A stretch of DNA of 32,000 nucleotides from Erysipelotrichaceae bacterium (GCA_963663995.1 OY760660.1:870001-902000), one strand, 5' to 3'. Numbered from the stretch's first letter, positions 955 to 25,075 are shown. Numbers and translations are program-made. Notes: generated from the letters alone by a model not told the origin.

Positions 955-1616
955 TGAACTGAATAGCCCCCATCGATTACAATTTCTTGACCTGTAATAT
1001 ATGTATTTTTTTCGGAACATAAATAAAAAACTATTTCAGCAATTTCTTCTGGTTGAGCTAGTCTTTTTAATGGAATGGTTTCTGCTATTTTTCCTATTTG
1101 TTCTGTTGAATTATTTTTACTTGTTAGTTCTGTTAATGTAAACCCTGGGCATACTGTATTAACGAGTATATTTTCATTTGCTACTTCAAGAGCTAACGTT
1201 GTTGTGATTCCATGAATACCTCTTTTTGTTGCACTATAAATTCCTCTTCCAGGTTTTGAAACAACTGACCATATTGATGCAATATTTACAATCCTTCCAT
1301 ACTTTTGAGTTTTCATTTTTGGAACAAATGATTTAAGTAGATAGATAGGCGCGATTAAATTTATATTGAATGTATTTTCGATATCTGTTTCTTTAACATT
1401 TTCAATAAGATTAATTTCATTTATTCCAGCATTATTTACTAAAACATCATAGGTATCATTTTTATGATTCTCAATAAATTTTTTAATTGAGTCTATATTG
1501 CTTAAATCTAGTTCATTTCTTGTGGGTGCATAAACAAAATAACCATTACTTTCAAATATTTTTTTAATTTCTAATCCAATCCCTCTAGAACCACCTGTCA
1601 ATAAAACTTTTTTCAT
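951..1616 (-). CDS. Classical short-chain dehydrogenase/reductase (FabG-like); candidate ketoreductase of the sugar pathway (YerF-like role)
   Basis: Carries TGGSRGIG (TGxxxGxG) and YSATK (YxxxK). I place the start at ATG 1616, which has a GGAGA Shine-Dalgarno 6 nt upstream and lies 1 nt after the upstream stop. The ORF-track start at 1643 would overlap the upstream gene by 26 nt. Confidence 0.8.
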   Translation of the reverse strand: MKKVLLTGGSRGIGLEIKKIFESNGYFVYAPTRNELDLSNIDSIKKFIENHKNDTYDVLVNNAGINEINLIENVKETDIENTFNINLIAPIYLLKSFVPKMKTQKYGRIVNIASIWSVVSKPGRGIYSATKRGIHGITTTLALEVANENILVNTVCPGFTLTELTSKNNSTEQIGKIAETIPLKRLAQPEEIAEIVFYLCSEKNTYITGQEIVIDGGYSVQ

Positions 1617-1617
1617 T

Positions 1618-3414
1618 TTATTCTCCAAATTTAATACTTTCATATTCTTCTCGATCTAAGAATGGAAACATATCATCTATTCTTGGAGAAACTATCGTTC
1701 CATCTTCTAAAACTTTTGATGATAATTTTGGTTCAAAGTTTTGTTCTACATCTAAAATAACTTCGCATAGAATTGGACCTTTTTCTCTTAACACATTGTT
1801 TAATATTTCATCTAATTTGGAATGGTTATCAATTTTTTTATATTTTATATCATATGCATATGCAATTTTTTCCAACTCAGGAAAACTTACACCATTATCA
1901 GAACACACACCTATTAAATCTTTTTTAGTCAAGTTCTTTTGAGTTTGTCTAATCGAGTGATATCCATTATTATTTAGCACAAATAAAACAATATCTAAAT
2001 TGTAATGCTTAATAGTTTGTAATTCTTGTATATTCATTTGTAAGCTTCCATCGCCTTCAAAACAAATGATTTTTTCACCAGTTGCAATATTAGCTCCAAT
2101 CGCTGCAGGTAATCCATAACCCATTGAAGCACAACCTGAATTTGTATATAACCTTTGTCCTTTTTTGATTTTCGCCGCTTGAAATGATATAACACATGCT
2201 GAACCATTACTTGTTACTACTTTTTGATTTTCATTCAACAAATTAAAACATTTATCCATGAAAATATAGGGATTAACATACTCATTATTTTGATAATATT
2301 CTTTTCTTACTACTGGATATTTATTATTTGTTTCACGACACCACCTTAACCAATTGTCAAATTTATTGTCACAAGTATTTAGTGATAGATATTTATTTAG
2401 TGAAATCAAAACATCTTTTACATTAGCATGTATTGGAAAATCAATAGATAAAGTAGGTTTTAATAATTCATTTTGATCTATATCAACCATTATTTTAAAA
2501 GCGTTTTTTGCGAAATTTCTAAAATTATAGCTAATTTGTCTAATATTTAATCGACTCCCAAGAACTAGTAACAAGTCAGCATTTTCAACAACAAAATTGC
2601 CTCCTCTAGTTCCAATAGTACCTGGTCTTCCACAAAATAAAGGATGATCATCCCATAATGTATCATGTGCATTCCACGCTGTTACAACAGGAATATTTAG
2701 TTTCTCTATTAATTGAATAAACTCTTTATTTGCATCTGCTAATCTAATACCACTACCTACAAAAACAACAGGTTTTTTAGAATTGTTTATTTTATCAATA
2801 ATTTTCGGACTTAATAATTCATCGTAAATAGGTGTTTGTGTATCAGTATATACATTATTTTTTCTTATTAACTGATCTGTATCGATTATTGCTGCTTGAA
2901 CATCAAGTGGAATATCTAACCAAACTGGTCCTTTACGCCCAGAATTAGCCTCATTCCAAGCTTCTTCTAAGTGAAAGAGAATTTCATTTTCATGCATTAC
3001 AATTTGAGAATATTTAGTCATAGAGTTAACACAATCAGTTATATTAAACTCTTGATCACCTAATTGTCTTAGTTTTATATCAGTTGATTTAATTGTAGTT
3101 TCACGTTTAACTTGTCCAGATATGACAAACATTGGTATAGAGTCTAACCACGCACCTAAAACACCCGTTAAAGCATTTGTTCCTCCAGGACCGCTTGTTA
3201 CACAAACTAAAGGTAAATTCCCTGTCATTCTTGCATAAGATTCAGCAGCAATTGCACATGCTTGCTCATGATGTTGATAGTAACTCTTTAATTCTGGATG
3301 GTGTCCAAAAGAATCGTTTAGATGCATTGCACCACCACCTGTTATTGTAAATACATCTTTAACACCTTTTGATACGAAAAAATTCGCTATGAAATCTGAT
3401 ACTTTAATTTTCAT
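1618..3414 (-). CDS. Thiamine-diphosphate-dependent enzyme, acetolactate-synthase large-subunit-like (598 aa); candidate YerE-like two-carbon branching enzyme
   Basis: The ThDP-binding motif GDGSLQMNIQELQT...NNNGY is present. The N-terminal Pyr domain shows 'GGGAMHLND...HEQACAIAAESYAR'. The three-domain length is typical of AHAS/YerE-type enzymes. The gene overlaps the upstream gene by 11 nt. Confidence 0.8.
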   Translation of the reverse strand: MKIKVSDFIANFFVSKGVKDVFTITGGGAMHLNDSFGHHPELKSYYQHHEQACAIAAESYARMTGNLPLVCVTSGPGGTNALTGVLGAWLDSIPMFVISGQVKRETTIKSTDIKLRQLGDQEFNITDCVNSMTKYSQIVMHENEILFHLEEAWNEANSGRKGPVWLDIPLDVQAAIIDTDQLIRKNNVYTDTQTPIYDELLSPKIIDKINNSKKPVVFVGSGIRLADANKEFIQLIEKLNIPVVTAWNAHDTLWDDHPLFCGRPGTIGTRGGNFVVENADLLLVLGSRLNIRQISYNFRNFAKNAFKIMVDIDQNELLKPTLSIDFPIHANVKDVLISLNKYLSLNTCDNKFDNWLRWCRETNNKYPVVRKEYYQNNEYVNPYIFMDKCFNLLNENQKVVTSNGSACVISFQAAKIKKGQRLYTNSGCASMGYGLPAAIGANIATGEKIICFEGDGSLQMNIQELQTIKHYNLDIVLFVLNNNGYHSIRQTQKNLTKKDLIGVCSDNGVSFPELEKIAYAYDIKYKKIDNHSKLDEILNNVLREKGPILCEVILDVEQNFEPKLSSKVLEDGTIVSPRIDDMFPFLDREEYESIKFGE

Positions 3415-5047
3415 GTTTTAATTCCTCTCTCAATAAATCTTTAATTTCTAAAGTATATAAGCTTTTAGTTATAAAATTCAAATCTAAATTACTAAAATTT
3501 CTTTTTAGACTACTAATTGTATCAATATTGATTTCAATAGCTCTTTCTTTTGTAAATGAATAGTTCATATTAGGATGAACATAGTTTGATGTTATTGCCT
3601 TTGTATATCCATCAAAACCTGCTAAATTGATACTCTTGACATCTAAACTTTTTAATAATTTTATTGCCATTATTAATGGGTTATCCTTAAATTCAGCGTC
3701 TGTATCTATCAAACTACCAAAATCTAAAACAAAATCAAAATCGCCTTCACTTTTACGTATATTTGACATAGCAATAACTTTGAAATTTGAATTCTTGTTA
3801 TTTACTTGAGTTGATATTTGTACATATCGCTTTGAATTACTTAAAAATAAATAATTAATATTATATTCTGGAATGAAATTGAGTGATATTACAATTGGAT
3901 TCTTTAAATTAATAAATAAGTCTATTAAATCTTTTTGATTATTTATTGAGTTTCCTGGGCCGATTAAAAGTATATCTTTATGTGATAATTCACTTTGAAG
4001 TGTAGTAATAACACCAGCATTAATAAGCCTATTGGATTGATAATCAAAATATAATTTCTCAATCAACTTTTCATCATAGTCGAGTCGGCTTGATTCATTT
4101 ATTGATTTTAAGATGGTATCAATAGATGAAACAGACAATGTTTGCCGATCTAATAAATAGGTAACATAATTAGGATGGCAATGATTTGATGCGGCCATAA
4201 AGAGTTTTAGAGTATATCCCCAAGGTTTCTCTTTGAAAATATTAATTAAGGTTACATCTATGGCTTCTAATAGTTGAGTAATATCGTAATTCCCATTTAA
4301 ATTGTCATTCATATACATGGCAAGAAGTTCTGTTGGTGCATTGCCTGCCCCTTTACCCATTCCGAATACACTACCATCTACCATTAAACTTCGATCACTT
4401 TTTACATGATTTATCATTTCTATACAATTCGAATAGGCTAATTGAAAATTATTATGTGAATGAAAACCTAGATTTATTTTTAAATCTAATTTTTCATCAG
4501 CAATATCAACATAATTTAAAAGTCCTTCTCTATGTAATAAACCATAAGTGTCGACAATAGAAAATGCAAAAGGTGATACTTTATTCACTTTATCCATTAA
4601 CTCTATGAATTCATCAGTACTATAACTAGTTATTGAAACAGCTTGTACAAATACTTTATATCCTTTTCTTATCAATTCGGAACAAAATTGTAAAGCCGCA
4701 TCTGCTTTAGGTTTCTTGAAGATAACCCTTATTCCATCTAAATAACAATTCTTTGCATCATCAATCGCACTTATTGGACAAGTTCCAAAATCAATCATCC
4801 CAACAACCATTGTATTTTTCTTATCTAGATGAGATAGATTTTTTGTGTAGGATTTTGAATCTGGTTGAATGGTTCGATCAATACTGTATGCTTGTCTTTC
4901 ATCCATAAACCCAACTTCTATAATGTCTATATTAGCACTTACAATTCGTTCAAATATATTAGATATACTTTCCTTACCGAAATTCCATTCATTAACATAA
5001 CCACCATCTCGTAAAGTACAATCCAAAATTTGTATTTTCTTATTCAT
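3404..5047 (-). CDS. Fusion protein: N-terminal DRE-TIM (HMGL-like) aldolase / pyruvate-carboxyltransferase domain plus a C-terminal domain of about 200 aa of uncertain family (possibly MptE/DUF115-like)
   Basis: 'ILDCTLRDGG' lies at residues 6-15 and 'GFHSHNNFQLAYSN' (HxH metal site) follows; both are hallmarks of DRE-TIM metallolyases. The C-terminal part ('ILLIGPGNSI...', '...SINLAGFDGY') resembles the Rossmann-like MptE/Maf (DUF115) fold. That resemblance rests on my memory of family motifs only. Confidence 0.65.
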   Translation of the reverse strand: MNKKIQILDCTLRDGGYVNEWNFGKESISNIFERIVSANIDIIEVGFMDERQAYSIDRTIQPDSKSYTKNLSHLDKKNTMVVGMIDFGTCPISAIDDAKNCYLDGIRVIFKKPKADAALQFCSELIRKGYKVFVQAVSITSYSTDEFIELMDKVNKVSPFAFSIVDTYGLLHREGLLNYVDIADEKLDLKINLGFHSHNNFQLAYSNCIEMINHVKSDRSLMVDGSVFGMGKGAGNAPTELLAMYMNDNLNGNYDITQLLEAIDVTLINIFKEKPWGYTLKLFMAASNHCHPNYVTYLLDRQTLSVSSIDTILKSINESSRLDYDEKLIEKLYFDYQSNRLINAGVITTLQSELSHKDILLIGPGNSINNQKDLIDLFINLKNPIVISLNFIPEYNINYLFLSNSKRYVQISTQVNNKNSNFKVIAMSNIRKSEGDFDFVLDFGSLIDTDAEFKDNPLIMAIKLLKSLDVKSINLAGFDGYTKAITSNYVHPNMNYSFTKERAIEINIDTISSLKRNFSNLDLNFITKSLYTLEIKDLLREELKHEN

Positions 5048-5448
5048 ACGACCACCTTTTTCTTAAAGACCCAAAATTTATTTAATAAATAATTTAATGG
5101 AATTGAATAAACTAAATTAAAAATTGGAGCAATAGTCTCCGAAACATTAAAACCTTCTATCATAATAACTAAAGTTAAAGTGTTTATGAAGAAGGTGAAA
5201 GCGTAACTTATATATGTTTTTAACAATTCTTTAAAATTGAATTTATTACTAAAAAATACATACTTATGATTCCAATAATATGAGTTAAAAACACCGATTA
5301 TAAATCCAGATGTATTTGCAATAGCATAATGTACATTTAGAAAAATCAATAAATAATATACACAAAATGAAACAATAGTATTACTTAAACCTACTATTGA
5401 AAATTTAATAATTTCAACAATATCTAAACTATTTAATTTACTCAACAT
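5044..5448 (-). CDS. GtrA/GtcA-family small membrane protein (putative polyprenyl-phosphate-sugar flippase)
   Basis: 134 aa with four predicted TM helices. It has an N-terminal 'KFSIVGLSNTIVSF' and a C-terminal 'LNKFWVFKKK', typical of the GtrA family. It overlaps the downstream gene as ATGA and abuts the rfbH stop. Confidence 0.75.
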   Translation of the reverse strand: MLSKLNSLDIVEIIKFSIVGLSNTIVSFCVYYLLIFLNVHYAIANTSGFIIGVFNSYYWNHKYVFFSNKFNFKELLKTYISYAFTFFINTLTLVIMIEGFNVSETIAPIFNLVYSIPLNYLLNKFWVFKKKVVV

Positions 5449-6756
5449 TTATTTGGTTTTTTCCTCAAAAAAGGACTTAAATACAGACCCAATATATTCC
5501 ATTATTTTTTCATCAATACCAGGATATACCCCTATAAAGAATGTGTTGTTCATGACTGTATCGGTATTAGTAAGTTCACCAATTACTTTAATATCTTGGT
5601 CTAAATAAGCAGGTTGTTTTGTCATATTTCCAGCAAATAATTGTCTTGTCATAATTTTATTGCTTTCAAGATAATTAACAATTTCATTTTTATTAAAATA
5701 TTCATTTGAAATAACAGTAATTGGAAAACCAAACCAAGATGGATTTGAATTTACTTCAGCTTTTGGTAAAATCAAGAATTCTTTATATTTATCTAAAATT
5801 GTAGTTAATCTATTAAAATTCTCTCTGCGTTTTTCTATAAATAAAGGTAATTTTTCAAGTTGCGCACATCCAATAGCAGCTTGCATATCTGTAACTTTTA
5901 AATTGTAACCTATATGTGAATAAACATATTTATGATCATAACCATATGGTAATTCACCGTACTGTGTTTTAAATCTCCTACCACATGTATCATTTTGACC
6001 TGGATCACAGTAACAATCTCTACCCCAATCTCTATATGATTGAATAATAGTTTTTAATAATGGATTGTTTGTAAGTACTGCACCACCTTCGCCCATAGTA
6101 ATATGATGAGCAGGATAAAAGCTAACAGTTGAAATATCTCCAAATGAACCTACTTTTCTATTATCATAAATTGAGCCAACAGCATCACAACAATCTTCAA
6201 CTAAAAAAAGATTATACTTCTTACTAATTTCTACGATTTTTCCAAGATTAAATGGATTACCCAAGGTATGAGCTAAAACTATAGCTTTTGTTTTTGTAGT
6301 AATTGCTTTTTCTAATTGCTCTACATTTACATTATATGTTTCTAAATCAACATCTACAAAAACAGGGATAAGTCCATTTTGAATGATTGGATTTACTGTC
6401 GTTGGAAAACCGGCAGCTACAGTAATAACTTCATCACCTTTACGTAGTTGTCGTTCACCTAATTTTGATGAAGTTAATGCTGAAACAGCCAATAAATTTG
6501 CAGATGAACCTGAATTAGTGAGTAAACAATATCTGTTGTCCATAAATTTCGCAAAATCTTTTTCAAATTGAGCGGCATATCTACCAGTTGTTAACCAGAA
6601 ATCGAGTGACGAATCCACCAATTTCACAAGTTCATTATCATCAAAAATTCGACCAGCAAATGGTATTAATGTTTTTCCTTCAATAAATTCTTTTTTACTG
6701 AACTCTTCTTCATAATATTCTTTAACTAAAGATAATATTTGTTCTCTTTTACTCAT
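5449..6756 (-). CDS. rfbH: CDP-6-deoxy-L-threo-D-glycero-4-hexulose 3-dehydrase (E1; RfbH/DdhC)
   Basis: DegT/aminotransferase fold. His replaces the PLP lysine ([14 protein letters not shown]). The cysteine spacing is exactly C-X57-C-X1-C-X7-C (..EDCC..[57 aa]..[11 protein letters not shown]), which is the [2Fe-2S] motif characteristic of E1. The N-terminal 'FWLTTGRY' is typical of RfbH. Confidence 0.9.
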
Positions 6757-7825
6757 TTATTTCTCCTAAATATTCACTTATCTGTTTTAAAACTACTTCA
6801 TTTAAATCTGGAGTTTTAAGTTGGAAGTCAACAAACTCAACTACTTTTTCAATTGTTTTATCAATATCCCACTTTGGGACCCAACTAAATGTTTTATGAA
6901 ACTTTGAACAATCGAGCATTAATAAATTCGCTTCATGTTGCTGTGCTGCAACTTTACCATAGTTAACATTTATAGGATTCATTGAATTCATTTTTAAATG
7001 TTTATTAAATAAATCAACTATTTGCTTTGTTTTTACACAATTTTTCTCTTCCGGCCCAATATTATAAGAAGATGCAAGTTCAAAGTCACTTACTTGTTCT
7101 TTTGCAATCTTAAGATACGCTAATAACGGTTCTAAGACATGTTGGTAAGGCCGAATTGAATTTGGGTTTCTAATCTCTAGAATTTCTTTAGTTTCTAATG
7201 ATCTAATGCAGTCAGGAATTATTCTATTATCAGAAAAATCTCCGCCACCAAGAACATTTCCAGCTCGCATGGTTGAAATAGGTATTTTTTTGTCTTTTAA
7301 GAAAGATCTGTTATAGGTTGCAGTTACTAATTCAGAGCAAGACTTACTATTTGAATAGGGATCATAACCATCTAATACATCATTTTCACGATATCCCCAT
7401 ATCCATTCATTGTTTCTATAAACTTTATCAGTTGTAACATTAACAACTGATATTACACTTTTTGAAAGTCTCACACATTCAAGAACATTTGCCGTTCCCA
7501 TGACATTAATTTCGTAAGTTTCTCTAGGATTTTTATATGATTCTAACACTAATGGTTGTGCTGCCAAATGAAATACTACTTCAGGTTTAAACTCATCAAA
7601 AACACTTTTGAGTTTTTCAAAATCTCTAACATCAGCATAGATTTGTTTAATTTTTTTCTCTTGATTTAGCAATTTATATAAACTAGGCGATGTGTTTGGT
7701 TCTAATGCATACCCAATTATCTTTGCATCAAAATTTAATAGAACTTCTGATAGCCATGAACCTTTAAATCCAGTATTCCCAGTAATAAGAACCTTTTTAT
7801 CTTTATAAAACGATCTCAAACTCAT
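6749..7825 (-). CDS. rfbG: CDP-glucose 4,6-dehydratase
   Basis: Carries '[14 protein letters not shown]' (Rossmann) and 'YSNSK' (YxxxK). Length and context, between rfbF and rfbH, fit. I place the start at ATG 7825, forming ATGA with the rfbF stop; the ORF-track start at 7840 is a 5-codon extension. Confidence 0.88.
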
Positions 7826-8598
7826 TTCCAAACCTTCCATGGAGCATTATTTGTAGACCATAATTCTTCCAATAATAATTTATCTCTCATAGTATCCATA
7901 CATTGCCAAAAATCGAAATGTTGATATGCACCTAACTTGTTACTTTTCGCCAATTCAACGAGTGGTTCCTTTTCAAAAACCGTTTGATCACCTTCAATAT
8001 AATTAAAAATTTCCGGTTCAACTACCATGAATCCACCGTTTATCCATCCACCATCTTCTTTAACTTTTTCCTGAAAATTAATTATTTTTTGGTTATCGAT
8101 ATCCAAAACTCCAAAACGTCCACCAGGTTGAATTGCTGATATTGTTACAAGGTTGTCAGATTCTTGGTGATTGCTAAGAAGTCCATTGATATCAACATCT
8201 GCTACACCATCACCATAAGTTAATAAAAATGGTTCGTCGCCAATATAATCTTTAACTCTTTTAATTCGGCCACCAGTCATTGTATTAAGTCCTGTATCAA
8301 CGATTGTTACCTTCCAAGGTTCTGCATGATTATTATGAACAATTAAATCTTCACGATTGCCACTGAAATCAAAAGTTATATCAGAATTATGTAAATAATA
8401 ATTTGAAAAATATTCTTTAATTACATATTGTTTGTAACCAGCACAAATAATGAATTCATTAAATCCATATGAAGAATAATATTTCATAATATGCCATAAG
8501 ATTGGTTTTTCACCAATTTCTATCATAGGTTTTGGAACTAAATGTGACTCTTCACTAATACGTGTACCAAAACCTCCCGCTAAAATTACAACTTTCAT
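7822..8598 (-). CDS. rfbF: Glucose-1-phosphate cytidylyltransferase
   Basis: 'MKVVILAGGFGTRISEES...PKPMIEIGEKPILWHIM' is the canonical N-terminus of this enzyme. It is 258 aa. A GAGGGG Shine-Dalgarno lies upstream. It is the first gene of the minus-strand operon. Confidence 0.9.
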   Translation of the reverse strand: MKVVILAGGFGTRISEESHLVPKPMIEIGEKPILWHIMKYYSSYGFNEFIICAGYKQYVIKEYFSNYYLHNSDITFDFSGNREDLIVHNNHAEPWKVTIVDTGLNTMTGGRIKRVKDYIGDEPFLLTYGDGVADVDINGLLSNHQESDNLVTISAIQPGGRFGVLDIDNQKIINFQEKVKEDGGWINGGFMVVEPEIFNYIEGDQTVFEKEPLVELAKSNKLGAYQHFDFWQCMDTMRDKLLLEELWSTNNAPWKVWK

Positions 8599-8717
8599 TT
8601 AATTCCCCTCATAAGATATTTTCTTTATTATTTTATCATTATAATATTAGTAAAAGTAAAATAGAAAAAAATTAATCATCCTACACATTTCTTTTTAAAA
8701 ATTGCCTCATTTTAATA

Positions 8718-8726
8718 TGTTATAAT
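8718..8726 (+). promoter_or_regulatory. Candidate extended -10 promoter element (TGtTATAAT) for the plus-strand glycosylation operon
   Basis: TGTTATAAT lies about 30 nt upstream of the GTG start at 8757, with a GGGGG Shine-Dalgarno at about 8743-8747. The nearest -35-like hexamer (TTGCCT, 8702-8707) has only a 13-nt spacer, so the call rests on the extended -10 alone. Confidence 0.35.
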
Positions 8727-8756
8727 AATTCAAAATTAAGGTCTGGGGGTTCTTCT

Positions 8757-9719
8757 GTGTATAATTATAATAAAGAGATTACAATAATTGTTCCAACTTA
8801 CAATGAAGAAATTAATATTCCATTAATTTACCAAAGGATCTCAGATTTATTTAATACTAAATTACAGAATTACAATTATAAAATACTATTTGTTGATAAT
8901 AAATCAAAAGATAAATCAAGAAGTGTGATAAGAATGTTGGCACAAAAAGATAAACGTGTTCAATATATTTTTTATGTTAGAAACTTCGGCTTTTCAAAAT
9001 CAACATTTTATGCTTTAGGCCAAGCAGAAGGAGATGCTGCTATACTTTTATTTGCTGATATGCAGGATCCACCTGAATTAATAGAAAAATTTATTTTTGA
9101 ATGGGAGAATGGATTTCAAGTTGTTATTGGTATAAAAAATAAAAGTCAGGAAAATAGAGTAATATATAAAATCCGTTCTCTATACTATTACTTTATTAAT
9201 GAAATTACCGAAATTGACCACATAAATCAATTTACTGGATTTGGACTATATGATAGAAAAATGCTAAATATTTTTTCAAGGATTGATGACCCACTTCCTT
9301 ATTTGAGAGGAATTGTCGCTGAGTTGTCCCCAGAATGTAAAAGAATTTACTATGAACAAGAAAAGAGAAAATATGGTAAAACTTCCTTTAATTTCTGGAA
9401 TCTTTATGATGTGGCTATGTTAGGAATAACATCTTATTCAAAATCATTAATGCGTATCGCAGTAATTATCGGTACGTTAATATCGACTATTAGTTTAGTT
9501 ATCGCATTTATAACTGTTATATTAAAAACAATGAAAATTATTGATTATCCAGTGGGTAATGCTGCTATACTTTTTGGAGTTTATTTATTTGGCGGACTTA
9601 TTACACTTTTCTTAGGTATACAAGGAGAGTACATTGCAAATATAAACATTAGGACAATGCATCATCCTATTGTAATAGAAGATGAAAGGCATAACTTAAC
9701 TGGTAAAAAGAATGCGTAA
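8757..9719 (+). CDS. GT2 polyprenyl-phosphate glycosyltransferase (GtrB/CsbB/ArnC/DPM1-like) with two C-terminal TM helices
   Basis: Carries 'IIVPTYNEEINI' and 'FADMQDPPE' (DxD-type motif of DPM1-like enzymes). Two hydrophobic helices sit at the C-terminus (LMRIAVIIGTLISTISLVIAFI; ILFGVYLFGGLITLFLGI). The start codon is GTG. Confidence 0.8.
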   Translation: MYNYNKEITIIVPTYNEEINIPLIYQRISDLFNTKLQNYNYKILFVDNKSKDKSRSVIRMLAQKDKRVQYIFYVRNFGFSKSTFYALGQAEGDAAILLFADMQDPPELIEKFIFEWENGFQVVIGIKNKSQENRVIYKIRSLYYYFINEITEIDHINQFTGFGLYDRKMLNIFSRIDDPLPYLRGIVAELSPECKRIYYEQEKRKYGKTSFNFWNLYDVAMLGITSYSKSLMRIAVIIGTLISTISLVIAFITVILKTMKIIDYPVGNAAILFGVYLFGGLITLFLGIQGEYIANINIRTMHHPIVIEDERHNLTGKKNA

Positions 9720-10635
9720 AGTAATTATATCAGGTGGTACTGGTTTTATTGGTAGATGGCTCATTAAAGACTTACTAATGAATAATTATCAAGTTTTGGC
9801 AATTATTAGAAATAAAAATAAACTAGATAACAATTTTTTGACTAATCCAAACTTTTCATATATTGAAGGTGATTTAAGAAATTTAAATACAGATAAATTC
9901 CCAAAGAATAAATTCGATTGTTTTTTTCACCTGGCTTGGGAAGGTGTAAATTCTACTGATAAAAATATTTTAAAAATGCAAATAAGAAATATTGAAATGT
10001 CAATTAATGCAATTGAACTATGCAATAAATTAAATTGTGATAAGTTCATTTCCGCTGGGACTGTTGCTGAATATGTTTTCAGTAAAAACGTTCTTAATGT
10101 TGAGGAAAAACAAACACCAAATGATTTTTATGGTGCCGCAAAAACCTCAACACACTATTTCTTAAATGTTCGTGCAAGACAGTTAAATCAAAAATTTATT
10201 TGGGCAATTTTGCCCAGCACATATGGTGAATTTCGCAATGATAATAATATTATTACCTATACAATACAATCGTTGTTACACCGACGAAAACCTTCATATG
10301 GCAATCTGAATCAAATGTGGGATTTTCTATATGTTTCTGATGTTGCAACAGCATTAAGATTAATATCAGAGAATGGAAAAGATAATATGATATATGGTAT
10401 TGGTTCAGGAATTTATAAACCATTAAAAGATTATATAACTATAATTAGAGATCTTATTGATCCTCTTTTACCCTTAGGAATTAATGAAAAACCTGAAATG
10501 ACTCAACAAACACTTAGTTCTTGCGTGAATATATCACAATTATGTAATGATACTGGATTCAAACCTTTAATAAGTTTTGAAATAGGCATAAAAAAGACCA
10601 TAGAATATTGGAAAAATAAAAATGAAAATAACTAA
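9712..10635 (+). CDS. Extended SDR, NAD-dependent epimerase/dehydratase/4-ketoreductase family
   Basis: Carries 'ISGGTGFIGRWL' and 'YGAAK'. It is 307 aa and overlaps the upstream gene by 8 nt. Its size and family are those of CDP-paratose/abequose-synthase-type 4-reductases, but substrate cannot be assigned from sequence alone. Confidence 0.7.
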   Translation: MRKVIISGGTGFIGRWLIKDLLMNNYQVLAIIRNKNKLDNNFLTNPNFSYIEGDLRNLNTDKFPKNKFDCFFHLAWEGVNSTDKNILKMQIRNIEMSINAIELCNKLNCDKFISAGTVAEYVFSKNVLNVEEKQTPNDFYGAAKTSTHYFLNVRARQLNQKFIWAILPSTYGEFRNDNNIITYTIQSLLHRRKPSYGNLNQMWDFLYVSDVATALRLISENGKDNMIYGIGSGIYKPLKDYITIIRDLIDPLLPLGINEKPEMTQQTLSSCVNISQLCNDTGFKPLISFEIGIKKTIEYWKNKNENN

Positions 10636-11851
10636 GAATGATAATAACAAATTTGCAAGTATATTTCTATTTGTAGTAGTTTCTTCATTAATTTTGTGGT
10701 TTATTACAATATTATATGAAGGCATACAGTCTACTCAATATTCTATATTTTTTGATAAATGTAATGATTTGTTTGCTGATTTCACTAACATTAGTGGATA
10801 TAGTTCAACTCGAGATGTTTATTTAAACCCTATAAATGGACCAGGTCAAAAAGGGTATCCCCCTTTACCATATATAATTGCATATGTCTTTTCACGAATA
10901 GCAGTATTTGACACTGTATCATATCGAGATATATATGCTCAAAAAATGTTTTTAATTATTTTTGTTATATTTATTTCAATGTTACTAAGTTTAGTAAATT
11001 GGATAATTTCTGAAGAATTAAAAGGCTCTAAACTATTTCGGCTAACACTAGCTTTTGCATTAACATACTCAAATACTATGTTATTTTCAATAGAACGTGC
11101 AAATCTAATAATATTTACATTATTATTCTTGTTAGTTTATATTTTTTGGTATGATAATGATTCTAAAATTTTAAGAGAGTTTTCACTTATTAGTCTTGCT
11201 TTAGCGATATCCTTCAAATTAACTCCGGCAATATTAGGTGTATTTTTATTATTTGAAAAAAGATATTTCGATATTTTAAGATTAGGTATTTATAGTTTAA
11301 TTCTCGTATTTTTACCATTTTTGTTTTTTAATGGCGGGTTTAATAATATATCTGTTATGTTATATAATATGAATGAATTCTTTAAAACTTATTCTGACTT
11401 AGAAGGAATTGGGTTTAAGGCAATAATTTATAATTTAATTAGCTATTTTATTAAAGATTTCCAATTTTCAAATCTTACAAATAATATTGTTGATCTAATA
11501 TCAATTTCTTCTTCTATTTTATTATTATTTACTTCATGGATGAATAGGCAAAAATGGAAGAGAGTACTAACGATAACATTTGTACTTTTATTAATTCCAA
11601 AAATTTCACATCAATATAATGCACTATACTTATTACCTTCCTTGGTATTGTTTTTAAATGAGAAAAATCGAGGTAAGGGGGATTTTATAATATTAGTTTC
11701 ATTTATTATTATGTCTTCTGTTTATTATATTCCTAATTTCGATAAGTACTCTATTTCATTATTTATGATCTATATCTATTTAATGATGATTAGCATTGTA
11801 AATATTAATAACTTTCTTAAGAGTTTTTTAGTTAAAAAAAATTATAAATGA
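10622..11851 (+). CDS. Polytopic membrane protein, GT-C-fold glycosyltransferase candidate (DUF2029/GT87-like)
   Basis: About 10 hydrophobic helices. The first loop carries 'DLFADF...GYPPLPY', an acidic plus YPP pattern that I associate with DUF2029/GT87 and other GT-C enzymes. It overlaps the upstream gene by 14 nt. Confidence 0.5.
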   Translation: MKITKNDNNKFASIFLFVVVSSLILWFITILYEGIQSTQYSIFFDKCNDLFADFTNISGYSSTRDVYLNPINGPGQKGYPPLPYIIAYVFSRIAVFDTVSYRDIYAQKMFLIIFVIFISMLLSLVNWIISEELKGSKLFRLTLAFALTYSNTMLFSIERANLIIFTLLFLLVYIFWYDNDSKILREFSLISLALAISFKLTPAILGVFLLFEKRYFDILRLGIYSLILVFLPFLFFNGGFNNISVMLYNMNEFFKTYSDLEGIGFKAIIYNLISYFIKDFQFSNLTNNIVDLISISSSILLLFTSWMNRQKWKRVLTITFVLLLIPKISHQYNALYLLPSLVLFLNEKNRGKGDFIILVSFIIMSSVYYIPNFDKYSISLFMIYIYLMMISIVNINNFLKSFLVKKNYK

Positions 11852-11927
11852 ATTTTTGAGAGTATAAAAATAATTTTATTAACTTCAAATTAAAATGAAA
11901 TTTTAGATAATTAATTGTGGGTGAGGC

Positions 11928-14243
11928 GTGAAAAAAGTTAAGTTATCAATTTATTTATTTGGAATAATATTTATAATATTTTCCTTTATTAAAATTTACC
12001 ATCCAAATTATGGAATTATTCTTAAGTATGATTATTCTTGGGGTCACATTCCTAACTATCATGAATTCTTCAATTTACTAAAAAATGGTCTTCCATTATG
12101 GTCTTGGAATTTCTTTTTAGGAACAAATTATTGGGGCTCAAAAGTCATAGGAATAATGGGTGATATTTTTTCATGGTTTGCTTTTGTATTAAACTATTAT
12201 ATTAAAAACACAACTATATCAATGAGCATTCTACTAATCGTCAAATATATAATTGGTTACACCGGTTTTTTTCTTCTAAGTAAAACATTTACTAATAAAA
12301 TTTATATCAGATTAATTTCATCACTTTTCTTTATATTCAGTGGATGGAGCACAACATTTATTGAGCAAACATTTTTCACTTCATTTTACGTGATACTTCC
12401 CTTTATGTTTTATGGTGTTGAAAAATATCTTTTAGAAAAAAAATACTCGATTTATATATTATCTGTTGCGATATTAATATCTATTGATTTCTATTTATTT
12501 TGGCCAACATCAATATTATTGTTATTTTACTGGCTATATAGAAATTTAATAATATTTAAAATAAATAAAAGTAATTTCACTATTTTTATTAAAAATTCTA
12601 TTGTGTTACTTTTTTATACAATAATTGGATTATTGATATCATCTGTTTTTTGGCTGCCAGGAATGATGCATTTACTTAGTTCTGCAAGAATTGGTAATTA
12701 TTTATTTTCATATACAAATTGGAGTTTGATAAATATTACAAGTTTTTTTGTATTTTCTTTTATTCCAGTTCTAAAATATTTAAATGGATTTTTAAAAGAT
12801 AGTTGGTATTACTTTTACCAAATTGGTCTGTATTACGGATCTATTTTTTTAATCTTAATACCACATGTTTTTTATGTTTTTGAATCAAAAAAAGAGAGGA
12901 TTGTTAATTCAATTTTTATTTTGTTGATATATTCACTCTTACTATCACCGAAAATTGGTCTGTTTTTTCATTTTACATATAGTTTAAGATATACATTCGT
13001 TATAACATTTTTTGGTTTAATTATTGGGATTCAAATTTTAGATAAATTACATAAGTTAAATAAGTTTATTTTATTAATTGTACAAATGGTAATAGCTATT
13101 GCTTATATATATCTTACAAATGTAATTATTCCTGAAATTTATGGATTTAACATGTCCATAAACACAACTGAATTAATAATTTTAAAATATATTTTTATTC
13201 TTACAATTATTTACACAACAATTTTACTTTTTATAAATTCGAATTTAAAAAGACCAAATTTAATAAACGCACTTTCTATTGTTTTAATCTTTTTTTCTTT
13301 AATTGAACTATACATATCAACTGATTTTTCCATAAAGTCTCAAGACTTTTTAATTGAAAATGAAACTCCTCCTTTTGTTAGAGATTCAAATTATTTAGAT
13401 GCTTTAACTTTCTTAAAATCGACTGATACTACATTCTATAGAATTTATCAGGATGATCTAAGTATATCCAATATAAATTTAGTATATGATTTTAAAAGTA
13501 TCTCAACATATGACAGCACATACCAATATTCATTAATAAAATACTTAGATTGGACACGCCAATACCCTTACACAAATTGGGAGTTTAAATATCAAGAACC
13601 CTCATTTAATTTAATTATGGATACTAGATATGCGATTGTTAAATCATCAAATGTTGATAGTTATATGGTTAGCGACTGGTACACAACGGAAATTTATAAT
13701 AATGGAATGTATAAAATTCTTAAATACAAAGACGATGTAAGTATTGCGTATACATATAATTTTTGCTCCAGTTATAATGAGATCACTAATTTTGTAAGTC
13801 AAGATCAGTATCAACTATTTGAACTAGGTGATTTATTAAAACAAACTCTATATTTTAAAAACGGATGCGATATCGAACTACAAAAGTATACAAATCACGA
13901 AACATTCAATCGTAACTACTTTGATCCAATTTATTATTCTCAGAATTCAATGTTTTTTGACATCGATATTGAACAAAATCAACTCTTATTTTTCAGTATT
14001 CCATACGACGAAGGATGGTCTCTGTATGATAATGATAAAAAAATAGATTTTTATGAAGTTCAAGGTGGCTTTATAGGAATCCCAATTGATTCAGGCAATC
14101 ATAAATTACTCTTTAAGTTTAGACCAGAAGGTTTTAATCTAGGGCTTATATTAAGTCTAATAGGTCTTGTAATATTAATAATAAAAGTAATTGTATCTAA
14201 ATTTAGGTCAAAATCTAATATCAAAAAATATGTTAATAAATAA
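11928..14243 (+). CDS. YfhO-family membrane protein (GT-C-type extracytoplasmic glycosyltransferase)
   Basis: 771 aa with many N-terminal TM helices. It has an early loop 'LKNGLPLWSWNFFLGTNYWGS', a large C-terminal soluble domain and a final single TM anchor (LGLILSLIGLVILIIKVIV). This is the YfhO architecture. The start is GTG at 11928, with GGTGAGG just upstream. Confidence 0.6.
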   Translation: MKKVKLSIYLFGIIFIIFSFIKIYHPNYGIILKYDYSWGHIPNYHEFFNLLKNGLPLWSWNFFLGTNYWGSKVIGIMGDIFSWFAFVLNYYIKNTTISMSILLIVKYIIGYTGFFLLSKTFTNKIYIRLISSLFFIFSGWSTTFIEQTFFTSFYVILPFMFYGVEKYLLEKKYSIYILSVAILISIDFYLFWPTSILLLFYWLYRNLIIFKINKSNFTIFIKNSIVLLFYTIIGLLISSVFWLPGMMHLLSSARIGNYLFSYTNWSLINITSFFVFSFIPVLKYLNGFLKDSWYYFYQIGLYYGSIFLILIPHVFYVFESKKERIVNSIFILLIYSLLLSPKIGLFFHFTYSLRYTFVITFFGLIIGIQILDKLHKLNKFILLIVQMVIAIAYIYLTNVIIPEIYGFNMSINTTELIILKYIFILTIIYTTILLFINSNLKRPNLINALSIVLIFFSLIELYISTDFSIKSQDFLIENETPPFVRDSNYLDALTFLKSTDTTFYRIYQDDLSISNINLVYDFKSISTYDSTYQYSLIKYLDWTRQYPYTNWEFKYQEPSFNLIMDTRYAIVKSSNVDSYMVSDWYTTEIYNNGMYKILKYKDDVSIAYTYNFCSSYNEITNFVSQDQYQLFELGDLLKQTLYFKNGCDIELQKYTNHETFNRNYFDPIYYSQNSMFFDIDIEQNQLLFFSIPYDEGWSLYDNDKKIDFYEVQGGFIGIPIDSGNHKLLFKFRPEGFNLGLILSLIGLVILIIKVIVSKFRSKSNIKKYVNK

Positions 14244-16059
14244 ATGTTTCTAAAACCAAATTAACAGTAGTATTATGCTTATATATTTTGTAAACTCCTC
14301 CGACAACCGGGTAATTACTGTCATCAAATAATGAATATGCAAAATATTCAAATTCCCTGTTAATTGAATAGATATATAAATAGTCGTAATTTAAAAGCAA
14401 ATTAATAAAGTCTTCTTTATCAATGGTTTTTTCCCAATATCCTGATATATATTCATCAAATGATATATATTGATAATCCATATTTATTTTTCTTGGTAAC
14501 ATATAATATCTAAATTGATTTGTGATTAAATCAGATTCTTGTTGAGCTACTATAAAAATTCCTTGATCAAAAGTTGTTAATTCATTAAGTTTATTCGAAA
14601 TTGATTCTATTTTGGAAACTTGATATGGTTTTAAGTTCAATGAAAAAGAATCATTGCTCCAATTATTAGTTATTGATATGAAAATTACTATAAGTAAAAT
14701 AAAAATAGATTTTATATTTAGTAGTTCTATTCTTTGATTAATATAACTAAAAATTAAATATAATAACGAAAATAATAAATAGGTATTTAAGTATCTTGTT
14801 AATGAAAATAAATTCTCAAATTCATAACTAGAAAAACTATTGTTATATAAAATAAATAAAATATAGATATAAACAAATGAAAATAAAAATATCAGGTATA
14901 TTGATATTTCTAATCTTTTTGTTTTATCAAGAAATAGGTTTATTAATAAAATAAAAATATTTAGATAAAAGAATGAGAAAATCGAAGAAGAAAATAATAA
15001 TGGTTTTGCATATATATGATTAAAGAAATTACTTATTAGTACATTAGAATTTGAAGATAACTGATAAATTAAAATTTTAAAAGATTCAAAGATTGTAGAT
15101 AAATTAATATCGAATTGACCAGCTATAGATAAATTTTTAATATAAATAGACCATAAAATTGAAAAAGCATATGCAAAAATAATACATAAAATTAATTTTA
15201 GGTAATATACTTCATGTTTTATTAATAATTTAAACAAAAGAATAATTAATCCTAGAATTATAAAAATAATTCCTATTTGTTTAATGAACAGTATGGAAAT
15301 ACTTAATAAAAATATTTCAAAAAAACTAAATAAACTAAATTCATTATAATTATTCAAAATTCTAATATAGTAAGCTGCCGTTATTGCCATTATAAAATCT
15401 AAGTAAAGAGTTGAATAAAACTTTGCATCTTCTAGGTTAAATAAAATGACTGTTGTTATGGAAAAAATAAAAACGATAAAAATGCTTATTACATTTTTTA
15501 TTATATTTTTTGATTGTAATTTCTCACTAAAAATTGAAATAAAGAAAGAAAATTCAAGCAATTGAATAGCTCTAAACAAATATGACTCAGAATAACTTCC
15601 TTTTATCCAAATCCAAAAAAGCTCGATCAATGAAACTAGTGGCGGGTAATCTCTATGATATATTAATGTCGATATAGAGCTGGTATATAAATTATTTGTT
15701 CTATACATATCCTTAACCATATATGCCCAATGAGTAAAATCGTCCCAAGCAAAAATTTGCTTATTAATATTTATATACGTTACAAAAATATAAAATAGTA
15801 TAAAAAGCAACAAAGTTAAGTAAAAATTATTATTAAATAATTCTTTATGATGCTTTATCGCAATTATTAAACCAAATAACGAAAAACCACAATATAGTAA
15901 ATAACCAACGAAAATATTATTAAACAGACTTGTAATAAGACTAAAAATCCCTATAAATATAATACTCAAAGGTAAAAGTCTACCAAAAGATTTTTTACTC
16001 AACTGCATCAAGAGAATATTAAAGAAAGTGATTGTTAAAAAAGGTAAAATAATTCCCAT
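14233..16059 (-). CDS. Polytopic membrane protein with a C-terminal soluble domain; third GT-C-like glycosyltransferase candidate
   Basis: More than 12 hydrophobic helices. The first large loop reads 'WDDFTHWAYMV...YHRDYPPLVSL' (DD...YPP). I call ATG 16059 as the native start. The ORF-track start (GTG 16131) lies inside the IS30 inverted repeat. With the IS removed, the frame is closed by a TAG 8 codons upstream of the insertion point (+ strand CTA at 17358-17360), with no ATG, GTG or TTG before ATG 16059. Confidence 0.55.
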   Translation of the reverse strand: MGIILPFLTITFFNILLMQLSKKSFGRLLPLSIIFIGIFSLITSLFNNIFVGYLLYCGFSLFGLIIAIKHHKELFNNNFYLTLLLFILFYIFVTYININKQIFAWDDFTHWAYMVKDMYRTNNLYTSSISTLIYHRDYPPLVSLIELFWIWIKGSYSESYLFRAIQLLEFSFFISIFSEKLQSKNIIKNVISIFIVFIFSITTVILFNLEDAKFYSTLYLDFIMAITAAYYIRILNNYNEFSLFSFFEIFLLSISILFIKQIGIIFIILGLIILLFKLLIKHEVYYLKLILCIIFAYAFSILWSIYIKNLSIAGQFDINLSTIFESFKILIYQLSSNSNVLISNFFNHIYAKPLLFSSSIFSFFYLNIFILLINLFLDKTKRLEISIYLIFLFSFVYIYILFILYNNSFSSYEFENLFSLTRYLNTYLLFSLLYLIFSYINQRIELLNIKSIFILLIVIFISITNNWSNDSFSLNLKPYQVSKIESISNKLNELTTFDQGIFIVAQQESDLITNQFRYYMLPRKINMDYQYISFDEYISGYWEKTIDKEDFINLLLNYDYLYIYSINREFEYFAYSLFDDSNYPVVGGVYKIYKHNTTVNLVLETFIY

Positions 16060-16091
16060 GCTAGTATTATATCTTGATAAATAATTTAAAA

Positions 16092-16104
16092 AAAATAATT
16101 TTAA
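16092..16104. repeat. Left copy of the 13-bp direct repeat (putative target-site duplication) of the IS30 element
   Basis: AAAATAATTTTAA is identical to 17324-17336 and abuts the IS30 inverted repeat. Confidence 0.6.
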
Positions 16105-17323
16105 CCTAAATTGCAATATCAACCCGTCCACTTTTTGAAATAAAGAAAATCAAGAATCATTAAGTTGTTTGAATTTGATTGTAGTGGAAAAGAATGGATT
16201 CAGTGGGTGTTTGATAATTGAGTATCTTACGTGGTAAGTGGTTCATGGAATGAACCACTTGGTCGATCGTTAAGTCAGATATCGTTTTTAATGATTTACC
16301 TTTAGGAATAGAACGTCTAATTATTCCATTGTGTCTTTCATTCGTTCCTCTTTCCCAAGATGAATAGGGATGAGCGAAGTAAACATCACTTAGATCTTGT
16401 ATAAGCTCTGATAAACCTGCAAACTCTGAGCCATTATCACTGGTAATGGATTTAAAGATTTGTGGAAAATGCGGATGATCTAGGTTTAATTGTTTAAGTC
16501 CTTCATTAACGGCTTCTTCATATTTGCCTTTAATCTTCAGAATGATTTGATAACGAGTTAGCCTTTCTGTCATAGTAAGCAGAACGGGTTCATCCTTTTT
16601 CTTCTTTCCGATGACAGTATCTATTTCCCAATGACCAAATGTGCTTCTGTCATTGATTTCTTGAGGTCTACAATCTATCGATTGACCTAAGACTCTACGA
16701 TGTTTAGGTGCTTTCTTAGACTTTGTCTTTCGTCTAAGTTTCAACCATAGATTTAAGTTATTCAAATCCTTGATTAAACCTCTATCAATATAGTTGTATA
16801 AGGTCTTAGCACAGACTGCTTCAGACCGATCAAAATGTCCTTCTTTTAAAGCTCGTCCGACGACAATATCAGGTGACCACTTATCAACACTAATCTTTTG
16901 TGTAGCGTAATCTATAAAGGCTTTTACCTTAGCTAGCTTGGGCTGTGGTCGACTGTTTAAGCGATGTCGCTCATAAACGATTTGACCCGTCTCTGCGTAA
17001 TAGAGTTCAGTGGTATAAGTATAACCATTCACAATCTTCTTTTGAATCGCTGAACCACGTTTGATTTCGTCGTTAATCGTTGAGTGACTTCGATTAAGAT
17101 TTTTCGCGATCAGCCGATTAGAATAGCCACATCGCTTCTGTGTTTGAATTTCTATCCGTTCAGACAAACTTAAATGTTGTCCTTTAGTTCTAGTCGTTAT
17201 ATCATTGTGTTGCATCGTTCATAAGTCCTTTCTCATGTGTTTCGCAACTTAATGATACTAGGATTCTTATGAATGGTGCTTTTCTTTTTCTAACGGGTGG
17301 ACGAGTTCATTTTACAATTGAGG
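16105..17323 (-). mobile_element. IS30-family insertion sequence (about 1219 bp), apparently intact
   Basis: A single transposase ORF is bounded by imperfect terminal inverted repeats. These are CCTAAATTGCAATATCAACCCGTCCAC at 16105-16131 and the reverse complement of 17297-17323, CCTCAATTGTAAAATGAACTCGTCCAC (22/27 identical). A direct repeat AAAATAATTTTAA flanks the element. It is visibly richer in G+C than its surroundings. Confidence 0.85.
16160..17215 (-). CDS. IS30-family transposase
   Basis: N-terminal HTH region ('LSLSERIEIQ...GYSNRLIAKNLNRSHSTINDEIKRG'). DDE core reads 'GHWEIDTV', 'SDNGSEFAG' and 'HPYSSWERGTNERHNGIIRR..PKG', all hallmark IS30 motifs. Confidence 0.93.
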   Translation of the reverse strand: MQHNDITTRTKGQHLSLSERIEIQTQKRCGYSNRLIAKNLNRSHSTINDEIKRGSAIQKKIVNGYTYTTELYYAETGQIVYERHRLNSRPQPKLAKVKAFIDYATQKISVDKWSPDIVVGRALKEGHFDRSEAVCAKTLYNYIDRGLIKDLNNLNLWLKLRRKTKSKKAPKHRRVLGQSIDCRPQEINDRSTFGHWEIDTVIGKKKKDEPVLLTMTERLTRYQIILKIKGKYEEAVNEGLKQLNLDHPHFPQIFKSITSDNGSEFAGLSELIQDLSDVYFAHPYSSWERGTNERHNGIIRRSIPKGKSLKTISDLTIDQVVHSMNHLPRKILNYQTPTESILFHYNQIQTT

Positions 17324-23094: not shown

Positions 23095-23103
23095 TTGTTT
23101 TTT
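23073..23103. terminator. Candidate bidirectional hairpin terminator spanning the overlapping stops of two convergent genes
   Basis: AAAACAACTAG (23073-23083), loop CCAATGA, CTAGTTGTTTT (23091-23101), followed by further T residues on the plus strand. The 11-bp perfect stem has only 3 G:C pairs, so it is weak. Confidence 0.35.
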
Positions 23104-24983: not shown

Positions 24984-25075
24984 CCATCTCTCCCCAAACA
25001 TCAATGTGATTCTAAACTATTATGAATTTAAAATGTTACAAAATTATTACTATTTTTTAATTTAATAACTTTAAG

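Follow-up and report, generated by a model that had tools for sequence, protein, structure and literature searches.

To our knowledge, three-component extracytoplasmic glycosylation is known only with donors derived from uridine diphosphate (UDP) sugars, guanosine diphosphate (GDP) sugars or phosphoribosyl pyrophosphate (PRPP). Can such a system be fed by a cytidine diphosphate (CDP) sugar? This question is raised by a locus in a 32,000-nt stretch of DNA from an Erysipelotrichaceae bacterium (GCA_963663995.1 OY760660.1:870001-902000), which as a whole is called the window here and from whose first letter all coordinates are counted; its GC content is ~28%. The locus encodes a GtrB-type family 2 glycosyltransferase (GT2; 8757-9719, plus strand), a putative polyprenyl-phosphate glycosyltransferase, together with a GtrA-family protein and polytopic glycosyltransferases of the GT-C type, alongside genes for a CDP-linked 3,6-dideoxyhexose. 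Judging from sequence, we propose with a probability of about 0.65 that these genes make up a three-component extracytoplasmic glycosylation system of the Gtr type, fed by a CDP-activated sugar and not by a UDP-sugar.

The genes are arranged in two divergent arms. The minus arm reads rfbF-rfbG-rfbH-gtrA-aldolase-thiamine diphosphate (ThDP) enzyme-classical short-chain dehydrogenase/reductase (SDR)-AroB-related gene, the last of which runs off the window, and the plus arm reads GT2-extended SDR-GT87-like-YfhO, with an overlap of 8 nt between the GT2 and extended SDR genes. In the open reading frame (ORF) map, the arms leave an AT-rich spacer of 158 bp (8599-8756), exactly as given in a preliminary description of the same DNA. 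All features named there were found in place, including the ORFs at 5044-5448 (minus), 8757-9719 (plus) and 11928-14243 (plus), but its inventory omitted the extended SDR (9712-10635) and the GT87-like gene (10622-11851) and left the YerE-like ThDP enzyme unnamed. Promoter-like matches in the spacer were not commoner than in shuffled sequence, so that no promoter could be assigned, and a promoter and terminator scan of 1-16500, with matches again not above shuffled-sequence frequency, was uninformative on co-regulation of the arms.

The evidence that carries the proposal comes from related loci, labelled here with L-numbers. Using tblastn with the window proteins, we searched a test set of 80 loci, one genome per species, whose GT2s are 41-65% identical to the window GT2; because the genome scan used clade-typical peptide patterns, this set delimits the clade and is not a sample of the whole GtrB family. 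As a control, we used 80 metagenomic loci around relatives of GtrB sll0501, a polyprenyl-phosphate glucosyltransferase with UDP-glucose as donor; their GT2s share 53-74% identity with sll0501 and 25-31% with the window GT2. Homologues of RfbF (55-84% identity), RfbG and RfbH were found in 34, 37 and 42 of the 80 test loci, respectively, and those of the YerE-like ThDP enzyme (30-57% identity) and of the extended SDR in 51 each. At least one CDP gene (rfbF, rfbG or rfbH) lies within 10 kb of the GT2 gene in 47/80 loci, and a CDP gene or the ThDP gene in 66/80, a proportion that rises to 43/45 among loci with full 10-kb flanks. Nearly all of the linked genes are on the GT2 strand, in the order rfbFGH...ThDP-SDR-GT2-polytopic membrane protein. 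Around the sll0501 relatives, in contrast, RfbF, RfbG, RfbH, the ThDP enzyme and the SDR were each found in 0/80 loci.

Individual loci show how tight this linkage can be. In the closest relative, L001 (GT2 71% identical), a single-strand operon runs GT2-SDR-GT87-rfbF-rfbG-rfbH-GtrA-aldolase-ThDP-SDR-AroB-like, and thus holds both arms co-directionally, which indicates that the divergent layout of the window is a rearrangement of a single unit. The order is YfhO-rfbF-rfbH-like-GT2-GtrA-SDR-rfbG in L003 and rfbF-rfbG-C-methyltransferase-?-GT2-polytopic protein in L005. L013 has a contiguous rfbF-rfbG-rfbH-SDR-GT2 cassette, and the cassette of L014, from a Lactonifactor isolate, ends with a 616-aa polytopic protein; in both, the GT2 is the sole recognisable glycosyltransferase. 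Furthermore, homologues of the extended SDR lie directly 5' of the GT2 gene (~-925 nt) and 3' of the ThDP gene in most loci, and since most genomes have the extended SDR and ThDP genes side by side, whereas here they are split between the arms, both arms appear to share one pathway. The preliminary description had deduced from genetic linkage that a CDP-sugar is loaded onto polyprenyl phosphate. This core inference is well supported by the conserved, clade-specific gene linkage, namely by the single operon of L001, the recurrence across dozens of species, the absence of linkage in the sll0501 clade, and the split between the SDR and ThDP genes.

The GT2 clade is widespread in gut Lachnospiraceae and Oscillospiraceae, and is also found in spirochaetes, proteobacteria and candidate phyla radiation (CPR) bacteria, whereas a plasmid collection yielded only distant GT2 relatives (<=36% identity). 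Cultured members include Lactonifactor sp. BIOML-A5, Lacrimispora sinapis JR3, Oliverpabstia intestinalis, Holdemania sp., Agathobaculum desmolans ATCC 43058 and Oribacterium sp. C9. One GT2 sub-clade, found in L010 (Lacrimispora sinapis), L017-L022 and similar loci, occurs in the order ThDP-SDR-C-methyltransferase-zinc-dependent alcohol dehydrogenase-GT2, followed by large GT2s, a priming Bac_transf protein and an LCP ligase, with rfbFGH not within 10 kb. These genes appear to make another branched sugar, more heavily modified, for a wall-polysaccharide locus.

The GT2 itself retains the architecture of GtrB. It aligns over its whole length with sll0501 GtrB (5EKP, 151 bits, residues 4-307), ArnC (76 bits) and DPMS (58 bits), and shares 30% identity with phage P22 GtrB across 94% of the query. 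The two C-terminal transmembrane (TM) helices noted previously are recovered in the prediction at 234-252 and 270-288. The DXD-like ADMQDPP, the Asp aligned with that of sll0501 FRLMD and the two-TM hairpin are all present, and the motif A-D-x-Q-D-P-P is common to the clade of the window GT2 and that of sll0501. The two clades differ elsewhere. All 83 of 83 members of the window clade have D-N-x-S-x-D at the position where sll0501 has NDGSKD and ArnC has DDGSSD. With clade-separating positions defined as those conserved in >=90% of the clade and >=85% of the control (sll0501 relatives), we found, among others, N48 (D in the sll0501 clade), S82 (A), K127/S130 (R/R) and R140 (A). They also include T160-G161-x-G163, which stands in place of the invariant G-D-x-R of the sll0501 clade and adjoins the conserved Asp of FGLYD/FRLMD, near the catalytic region. 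A neighbour-joining tree places the clade in a single group apart from sll0501 GtrB and ArnC. The altered nucleotide motif and active-site loop fit a changed donor site, albeit with no residue assignable to cytosine recognition. The GT2 belongs to a clade that is predicted to use CDP-sugars and is marked by DNxSxD and F(T/D)GFGLYD.

Which CDP-sugar would be available to this enzyme? The first three genes of the minus arm are rfbF for a glucose-1-phosphate cytidylyltransferase (7822-8598; TIGR02623, 405.9 bits vs a cut-off of 300), rfbG for a CDP-glucose 4,6-dehydratase (6749-7840; TIGR02622, 433 bits vs 278), and rfbH for the CDP-6-deoxy-4-hexulose 3-dehydrase, or E1 (5449-6756; NF011936, 726 bits vs 423). 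All three clear their NCBIfam equivalog cut-offs, and thus the core enzymes for a CDP-3,6-dideoxyhexose are present. The acetolactate-synthase-like ThDP enzyme (1618-3414, minus) gave a full-length match of 386.5 bits to JanthE (PDB 8RPH), a characterised YerE-like carboligase, compared with 241 bits for the best acetolactate synthase, and every acetolactate synthase model of NCBIfam falls under its cut-off. It is predicted to be the branching enzyme for a 4-keto-3,6-dideoxyhexose. YerE adds a two-carbon branch to CDP-4-keto-3,6-dideoxyglucose, while ErwE and MMAR_2332 add longer branches from 4-hydroxy-2-oxo acids supplied by an adjoining pyruvate aldolase, after which a reductase acts (PMC9306805). 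This logic of aldolase, ThDP enzyme and reductase has been published for both erwiniose, where the aldolase ErwI is paired with the ThDP enzyme ErwE, and caryophyllose (PMC9306805); in M. marinum, the aldolase, ThDP and glycosyltransferase genes mmar_2331-2333 are all needed for caryophyllose incorporation.

The window has a corresponding aldolase gene. Its product, an HMGL-like (DmpG/BphI-type) pyruvate aldolase (3404-5047, minus; PF00682) with PDB matches to 3DXI and 1NVM, scores 98 bits against the 4-hydroxy-2-oxovalerate aldolase model NF006049, under the cut-off of 229, and probably makes a 4-hydroxy-2-oxo acid serving as acyl donor. The C-terminal half of this protein (3404-4249, ~270-280 aa) has no significant Pfam match, its single hit being a weak match to DUF5093 (E 0.005); L001 (542 aa) and several other loci also have the extension. 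No homologue of the ErwJ-type acetaldehyde dehydrogenase was seen in the window cluster.

For the side-chain ketoreductase, the role of YerF or ErwF, there are two candidates. The extended SDR (9712-10635, plus), with GGTGFIG and YGAAK motifs (PF01370, E 2.9e-33), could be given no specific family, and comparisons with PDB and NCBIfam gave only generic matches to dTDP-glucose dehydratase and GalE-like proteins, so that its assignment rests on synteny; on that basis it is a probable terminal ketoreductase of the CDP-sugar pathway, either YerF/ErwF-like or a 4-ketoreductase. The match to CDP-tyvelose epimerase reached only E 1e-4. The classical, FabG-like SDR (951-1643, minus; adh_short_C2, E 3e-44), conserved in L001 (77% identity) and L085 (45%), is a possible second candidate. 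Since the window shares the gene set of RfbF/G/H, DmpG-type aldolase, YerE-like enzyme and reductases with the published pathways, the product is probably, by analogy, an erwiniose/yersiniose-type acyl-branched 3,6-dideoxyhexose on CDP.

From these assignments a pathway can be drawn. RfbF, RfbG and RfbH, whose families are clear, would turn glucose-1-phosphate into CDP-4-keto-3,6-dideoxyglucose. Following the published erwiniose logic and synteny, the DmpG-like aldolase would supply a hydroxy-2-oxo acid, which the YerE-like enzyme would join to C-4, and the extended SDR of the plus arm, possibly with the classical SDR, would reduce the product to an acyl-branched 3,6-dideoxyhexose of the erwiniose/yersiniose type. 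The GtrB-type GT2, as its clade-specific gene linkage suggests, would then load the sugar of the CDP donor onto undecaprenyl phosphate at the inner membrane face. By family analogy, GtrA would flip the lipid-linked sugar, and outside the membrane it would be attached to a polymer or protein of the cell surface by a GT-C protein, for which the PimE-like GT87 protein is the most probable candidate, with YfhO as a possible further one.

The putative flippase is a small membrane protein of 134 aa (5044-5448, minus; PF04138, GtrA_DPMS_TM, E 5.8e-23). As described before, its gene is embedded between rfbH (5449-6756) and the aldolase gene (3404-5047). It has the same place in L001 (71% identity), and several other genera, L034, L038, L040 and L064 among them, also have a gtrA gene between rfbH and the aldolase or ThDP gene. 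Among 16 small membrane ORFs from related loci, Pfam confirmed GtrA-family proteins.

The third component is less easily named, as two GT-C proteins are present, YfhO by Pfam and the GT87-like protein by predicted fold. The preliminary description had chosen YfhO, and its family assignment for 11928-14243 (plus) was confirmed (PF09586, E 2.4e-55). The GT87-like polytopic protein (10622-11851, plus) scores 24.3 bits against PF09594, just under the cut-off, but 15/15 of its detectable homologues have PF09594. Its AlphaFold2 model (pLDDT 86.5, pTM 0.88) has as best fold matches PimE (E 1e-6, TM-score 0.62-0.66), glycosylphosphatidylinositol mannosyltransferase I (GPI-MT-I) and ALG6, all of them users of polyprenyl- or dolichyl-phosphate sugars. 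Asp53 in the first loop of the GT87-like protein is invariant, and the L001 operon contains an orthologue (56%). Gtr-like systems typically vary in their GT-C partner. Within 3 kb of clade GT2s we found 59 polytopic proteins on the same strand, many directly downstream, which belong to GT87 (14), YfhO (11), GtrII (3), and several to DUF6056, DUF6311, PMT_2 and PTPS_related, with ~20 having no Pfam family. On sequence and model, the GT87-like protein is the best-supported cognate extracytoplasmic GT-C protein, and probably a more likely one than YfhO.

The opposite assignment, with YfhO as the cognate transferase and the GT87-like protein serving another pathway, is the strongest of the alternatives that we considered, although we regard it as rather doubtful. 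Because the YfhO gene is co-directional with the GT87-like gene and only 76 nt downstream, co-transcription of the two is plausible; moreover, YfhO-type proteins account for 11/59 of the polytopic neighbours and YfhO heads the L003 cassette. However, the YfhO homologue closest to that of the window (56%) is encoded beside a second YfhO on another contig of the sample that yielded L001, and those at 46-48% identity belong to loci for other sugars and have no CDP genes beside them, whereas it is the GT87-like orthologue that is found inside the L001 operon. The earlier choice of YfhO as third component is thus weak. The homologues at 46-48% are also accompanied by relatives of the next gene in the window, which encodes a 632-aa protein with 10 predicted TM helices, convergent with YfhO (14233-16131, minus) and without a match in Pfam or NCBIfam. 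In two unrelated loci, L090 and L091, proteins of 622 and 629 aa, 33-39% identical to it in the N-terminal part, are encoded directly upstream of the YfhO orthologues, which suggests that these proteins form a conserved YfhO-partner family. YfhO may accordingly draw on the same lipid-linked sugar as a second transferase, or belong to a separate module. The two assignments are not exclusive, as both proteins may use the same lipid-linked donor on different acceptors.

Returning to the CDP-fed three-component system as a whole, several points weigh against it. CDP-donor use by clade members is something that we infer from sequence, and every characterised GtrB-type enzyme that we know of uses a UDP- or GDP-sugar. 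Only ~20% of loci have a detectable GtrA, so that, as in known systems, the flippase gene would often be unlinked. The E3 reductase needed by RfbH (AscD/RfbI/DdhD, a [2Fe-2S] flavoprotein) was not found among the scanned ORFs of the window, nor in the examined cassettes of L013, L014 and L010; for these anaerobes it is either encoded elsewhere in the genome or replaced by another electron donor. Nineteen clade loci, such as L010, have the ThDP gene without rfbFGH within 10 kb, and 14 loci, mostly on short contigs, have neither. The window also holds a second, soluble GT2 (18920-19993) and a Wzx-like flippase (19996-21354; NF041503, 418 bits), which could in principle use the CDP-sugar. For the presence of any CDP gene, 47/80 vs 0/80, the Fisher p-values of 8e-19, or 8e-7 for full-flank loci only, are inflated, as the species are related, the test and control loci were drawn from different collections and contigs in the control are shorter; the contrast between test and control is still absolute. 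Finally, reviews of three-component systems mention UDP- or PRPP-derived donors and no CDP donor (PMC8035078, PMC11127046), and we found no report of one in openly accessible full texts.

With the donor taken as a CDP-sugar, the GT2 might instead be a direct, membrane-anchored Leloir transferase at the cytoplasmic face, which would pass the sugar to a lipid-linked glycan or glycolipid without an undecaprenyl-phosphate-linked intermediate, the polytopic neighbours being polymerases, flippases or ligases. The L010-type loci, where large soluble GT2s, a priming Bac_transf protein and an LCP ligase come after the GT2 in place of a GT-C protein, speak for this, as does the detection of GtrA in a minority of loci. 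Against it, the full-length alignment of the GT2 to GtrB and ArnC includes the polyprenyl-phosphate-binding juxtamembrane and two-TM region, the polytopic proteins encoded directly downstream fall into GT-C families with polyprenyl-monophosphate sugars as donors, and GtrA is embedded in the sugar operon in the window, in L001 and in several other genera. Direct transfer is therefore improbable in our view. Slightly more improbable still is that the GT2 is an ordinary UDP-sugar enzyme making undecaprenyl-phosphate-linked glucose, N-acetylglucosamine or galactose, with the CDP-sugar used by the soluble GT2 and its Wzx-like flippase or by a transferase encoded elsewhere and the adjacency explained by a shared surface polymer: the characterised family members, the second GT2 with its Wzx-like neighbour and the 19 loci without rfbFGH would suit it, but homologues of that second GT2 are not conserved near clade members (weak partial matches only), the L013 and L014 cassettes contain no other recognisable glycosyltransferase, and the linkage is clade-specific and coincides with invariant changes in the nucleotide motif and the active-site loop.

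How does the proposed CDP-fed system compare with those already described? Like the Gtr systems for O-antigen glucosylation (GtrA/GtrB/GtrC of Shigella and Salmonella phages, and sll0501, 5EKP), the window combines a GT-A domain followed by two C-terminal TM helices, a GtrA-family protein and a GT-C partner downstream of the GT2; unlike them, its predicted donor is a CDP-linked, possibly branched 3,6-dideoxyhexose instead of UDP-glucose. The sll0501 clade has NDGSKD and GDxR where the window clade has DNxSxD and TGxG, and rfbFGH adjacency in 0/80 loci. In Gram-positive bacteria, the glycosylation systems for lipoteichoic and wall teichoic acids (CsbB/GtlA, GtcA and YfhO/GtlB) share the three-component logic and a YfhO-family protein (PMC8035078), so that teichoic-acid decoration in Bacillus and Listeria offers an analogy to the window system. 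They use UDP-N-acetylglucosamine or UDP-galactose, however, whereas the sugar genes in the window are of the CDP type and its better-linked GT-C protein is GT87-like. The Pgf O-glycosylation system of S. mutans (PgfS, PgfM1, PgfE and PgfM2) resembles the window in that PgfS is the best NCBIfam match of the GT2 and in an operon with a GT2, an SDR and two GT-C proteins, but it lacks CDP-sugar genes; orthology with Pgf was rejected, as the scores for PgfS (161 bits vs a cut-off of 500) and PgfM2 (68 vs 1500) are far too low.

On the side of sugar synthesis, the yersiniose, erwiniose and caryophyllose pathways (DdhA-D with YerE, ErwE or MMAR_2332 and YerF or ErwF, with or without the aldolase ErwI/MMAR_2331) have, like the window, rfbF/G/H, a YerE-like ThDP enzyme, a DmpG-type aldolase and at least one reductase in one cluster. 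The window differs from them in that neither an E3 nor an ErwJ homologue was seen and in its host, a low-GC Gram-positive bacterium. Furthermore, branched sugars of Gram-negative O-antigens are thought to be added by a cytoplasmic Leloir glycosyltransferase, whereas the window couples their synthesis to a polyprenyl-phosphate GT2, GtrA and GT-C proteins. The nearest precedent, compared by description only, is MKAN27435 in the lipooligosaccharide cluster of M. kansasii, a DPM/GtrB-type membrane GT2 whose gene adjoins glucose-1-phosphate cytidylyltransferase and SDR genes, and for which the authors proposed a polyprenol-phosphate-sugar intermediate; the sugar they suggested was fucose, and the nucleotide was not discussed (PMC4403928). 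The pentofuranose three-component systems of Citrobacter youngae O1/O2 (Kelly et al. 2024) demonstrate that unusual donors can be accommodated in this type of system, and have an SDR gene in the cassette, but their donor is made from PRPP by a phosphoribosyltransferase-type enzyme and not by a GtrB-type GT2 acting on a CDP-sugar (PMC11127046).

Taken beyond the window, the linkage and signature data lead us to favour, if only mildly, a large and previously unrecognised clade of predicted CDP-sugar:polyprenyl-phosphate glycosyltransferases, which would be the first CDP-dependent branch of the GtrB/DPMS enzymes and would deliver 3,6-dideoxy, C-methyl and acyl-branched (yersiniose/erwiniose-like) hexoses to surface polymers or proteins outside the membrane. 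The enzymes of CDP-sugar pathways are well characterised, and dideoxy and branched sugars are strong antigens and phage-receptor determinants in Gram-negative bacteria. If the wider proposal is true, rare dideoxy or branched sugars are carried on the surface of many gut Clostridia, and common commensal Firmicutes would display sugars so far described chiefly as immunodominant epitopes in the O-antigens of Yersinia, Salmonella and Pectobacterium. A CDP-dependent branch would also widen the chemistry of lipid-carrier glycosylation and provide a sequence signature with which it could be predicted from genomes.

Some further observations concern the clade and the surroundings of the locus. A clade GT2 with 47% identity is encoded at 2435-3382 of a 4.8-kb contig from human faeces (L172, MT838861.1, deposited as 'UNVERIFIED Bacteriophage sp.'), a fragment on which the other queried window proteins, CDP genes included, had no match; it may be a bacterial contamination or a phage-borne conversion gene. 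At the end of the minus arm, the AroB-related, cyclase-like gene (1-1020, minus; TIGR04425) carries a one-base frameshift in a minus-strand T9 homopolymer near 476-484. The N-terminal part matches TIGR04425 positions 1-157 at 213 bits and the next frame matches positions 156-315 at 173 bits, whereas the gene is unbroken (350 aa) in L001. A sequencing error could account for the frameshift, or the gene could be a pseudogene or, in a locus for a surface glycan, subject to slipped-strand phase variation. Beyond the gene for the 632-aa protein, transposase genes of IS30-like (16160-17215) and IS3-like (17435-18829, minus) insertion sequence (IS) elements split the YfhO block from the soluble GT2/Wzx-like pair, and the locus may have been rearranged by these elements. 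Further on, the stretch 23091-31992 (minus) encodes an LtaS-like sulfatase-domain protein (23091-25004), a PglK/MsbA-like ABC exporter (25076-26803), a carrier-protein-thioesterase fusion (26796-27836), an AMP-binding ligase (27837-29303) and a TAXI-TRAP transporter (29300-31992), genes which together resemble a module for acylating and exporting an envelope polymer.

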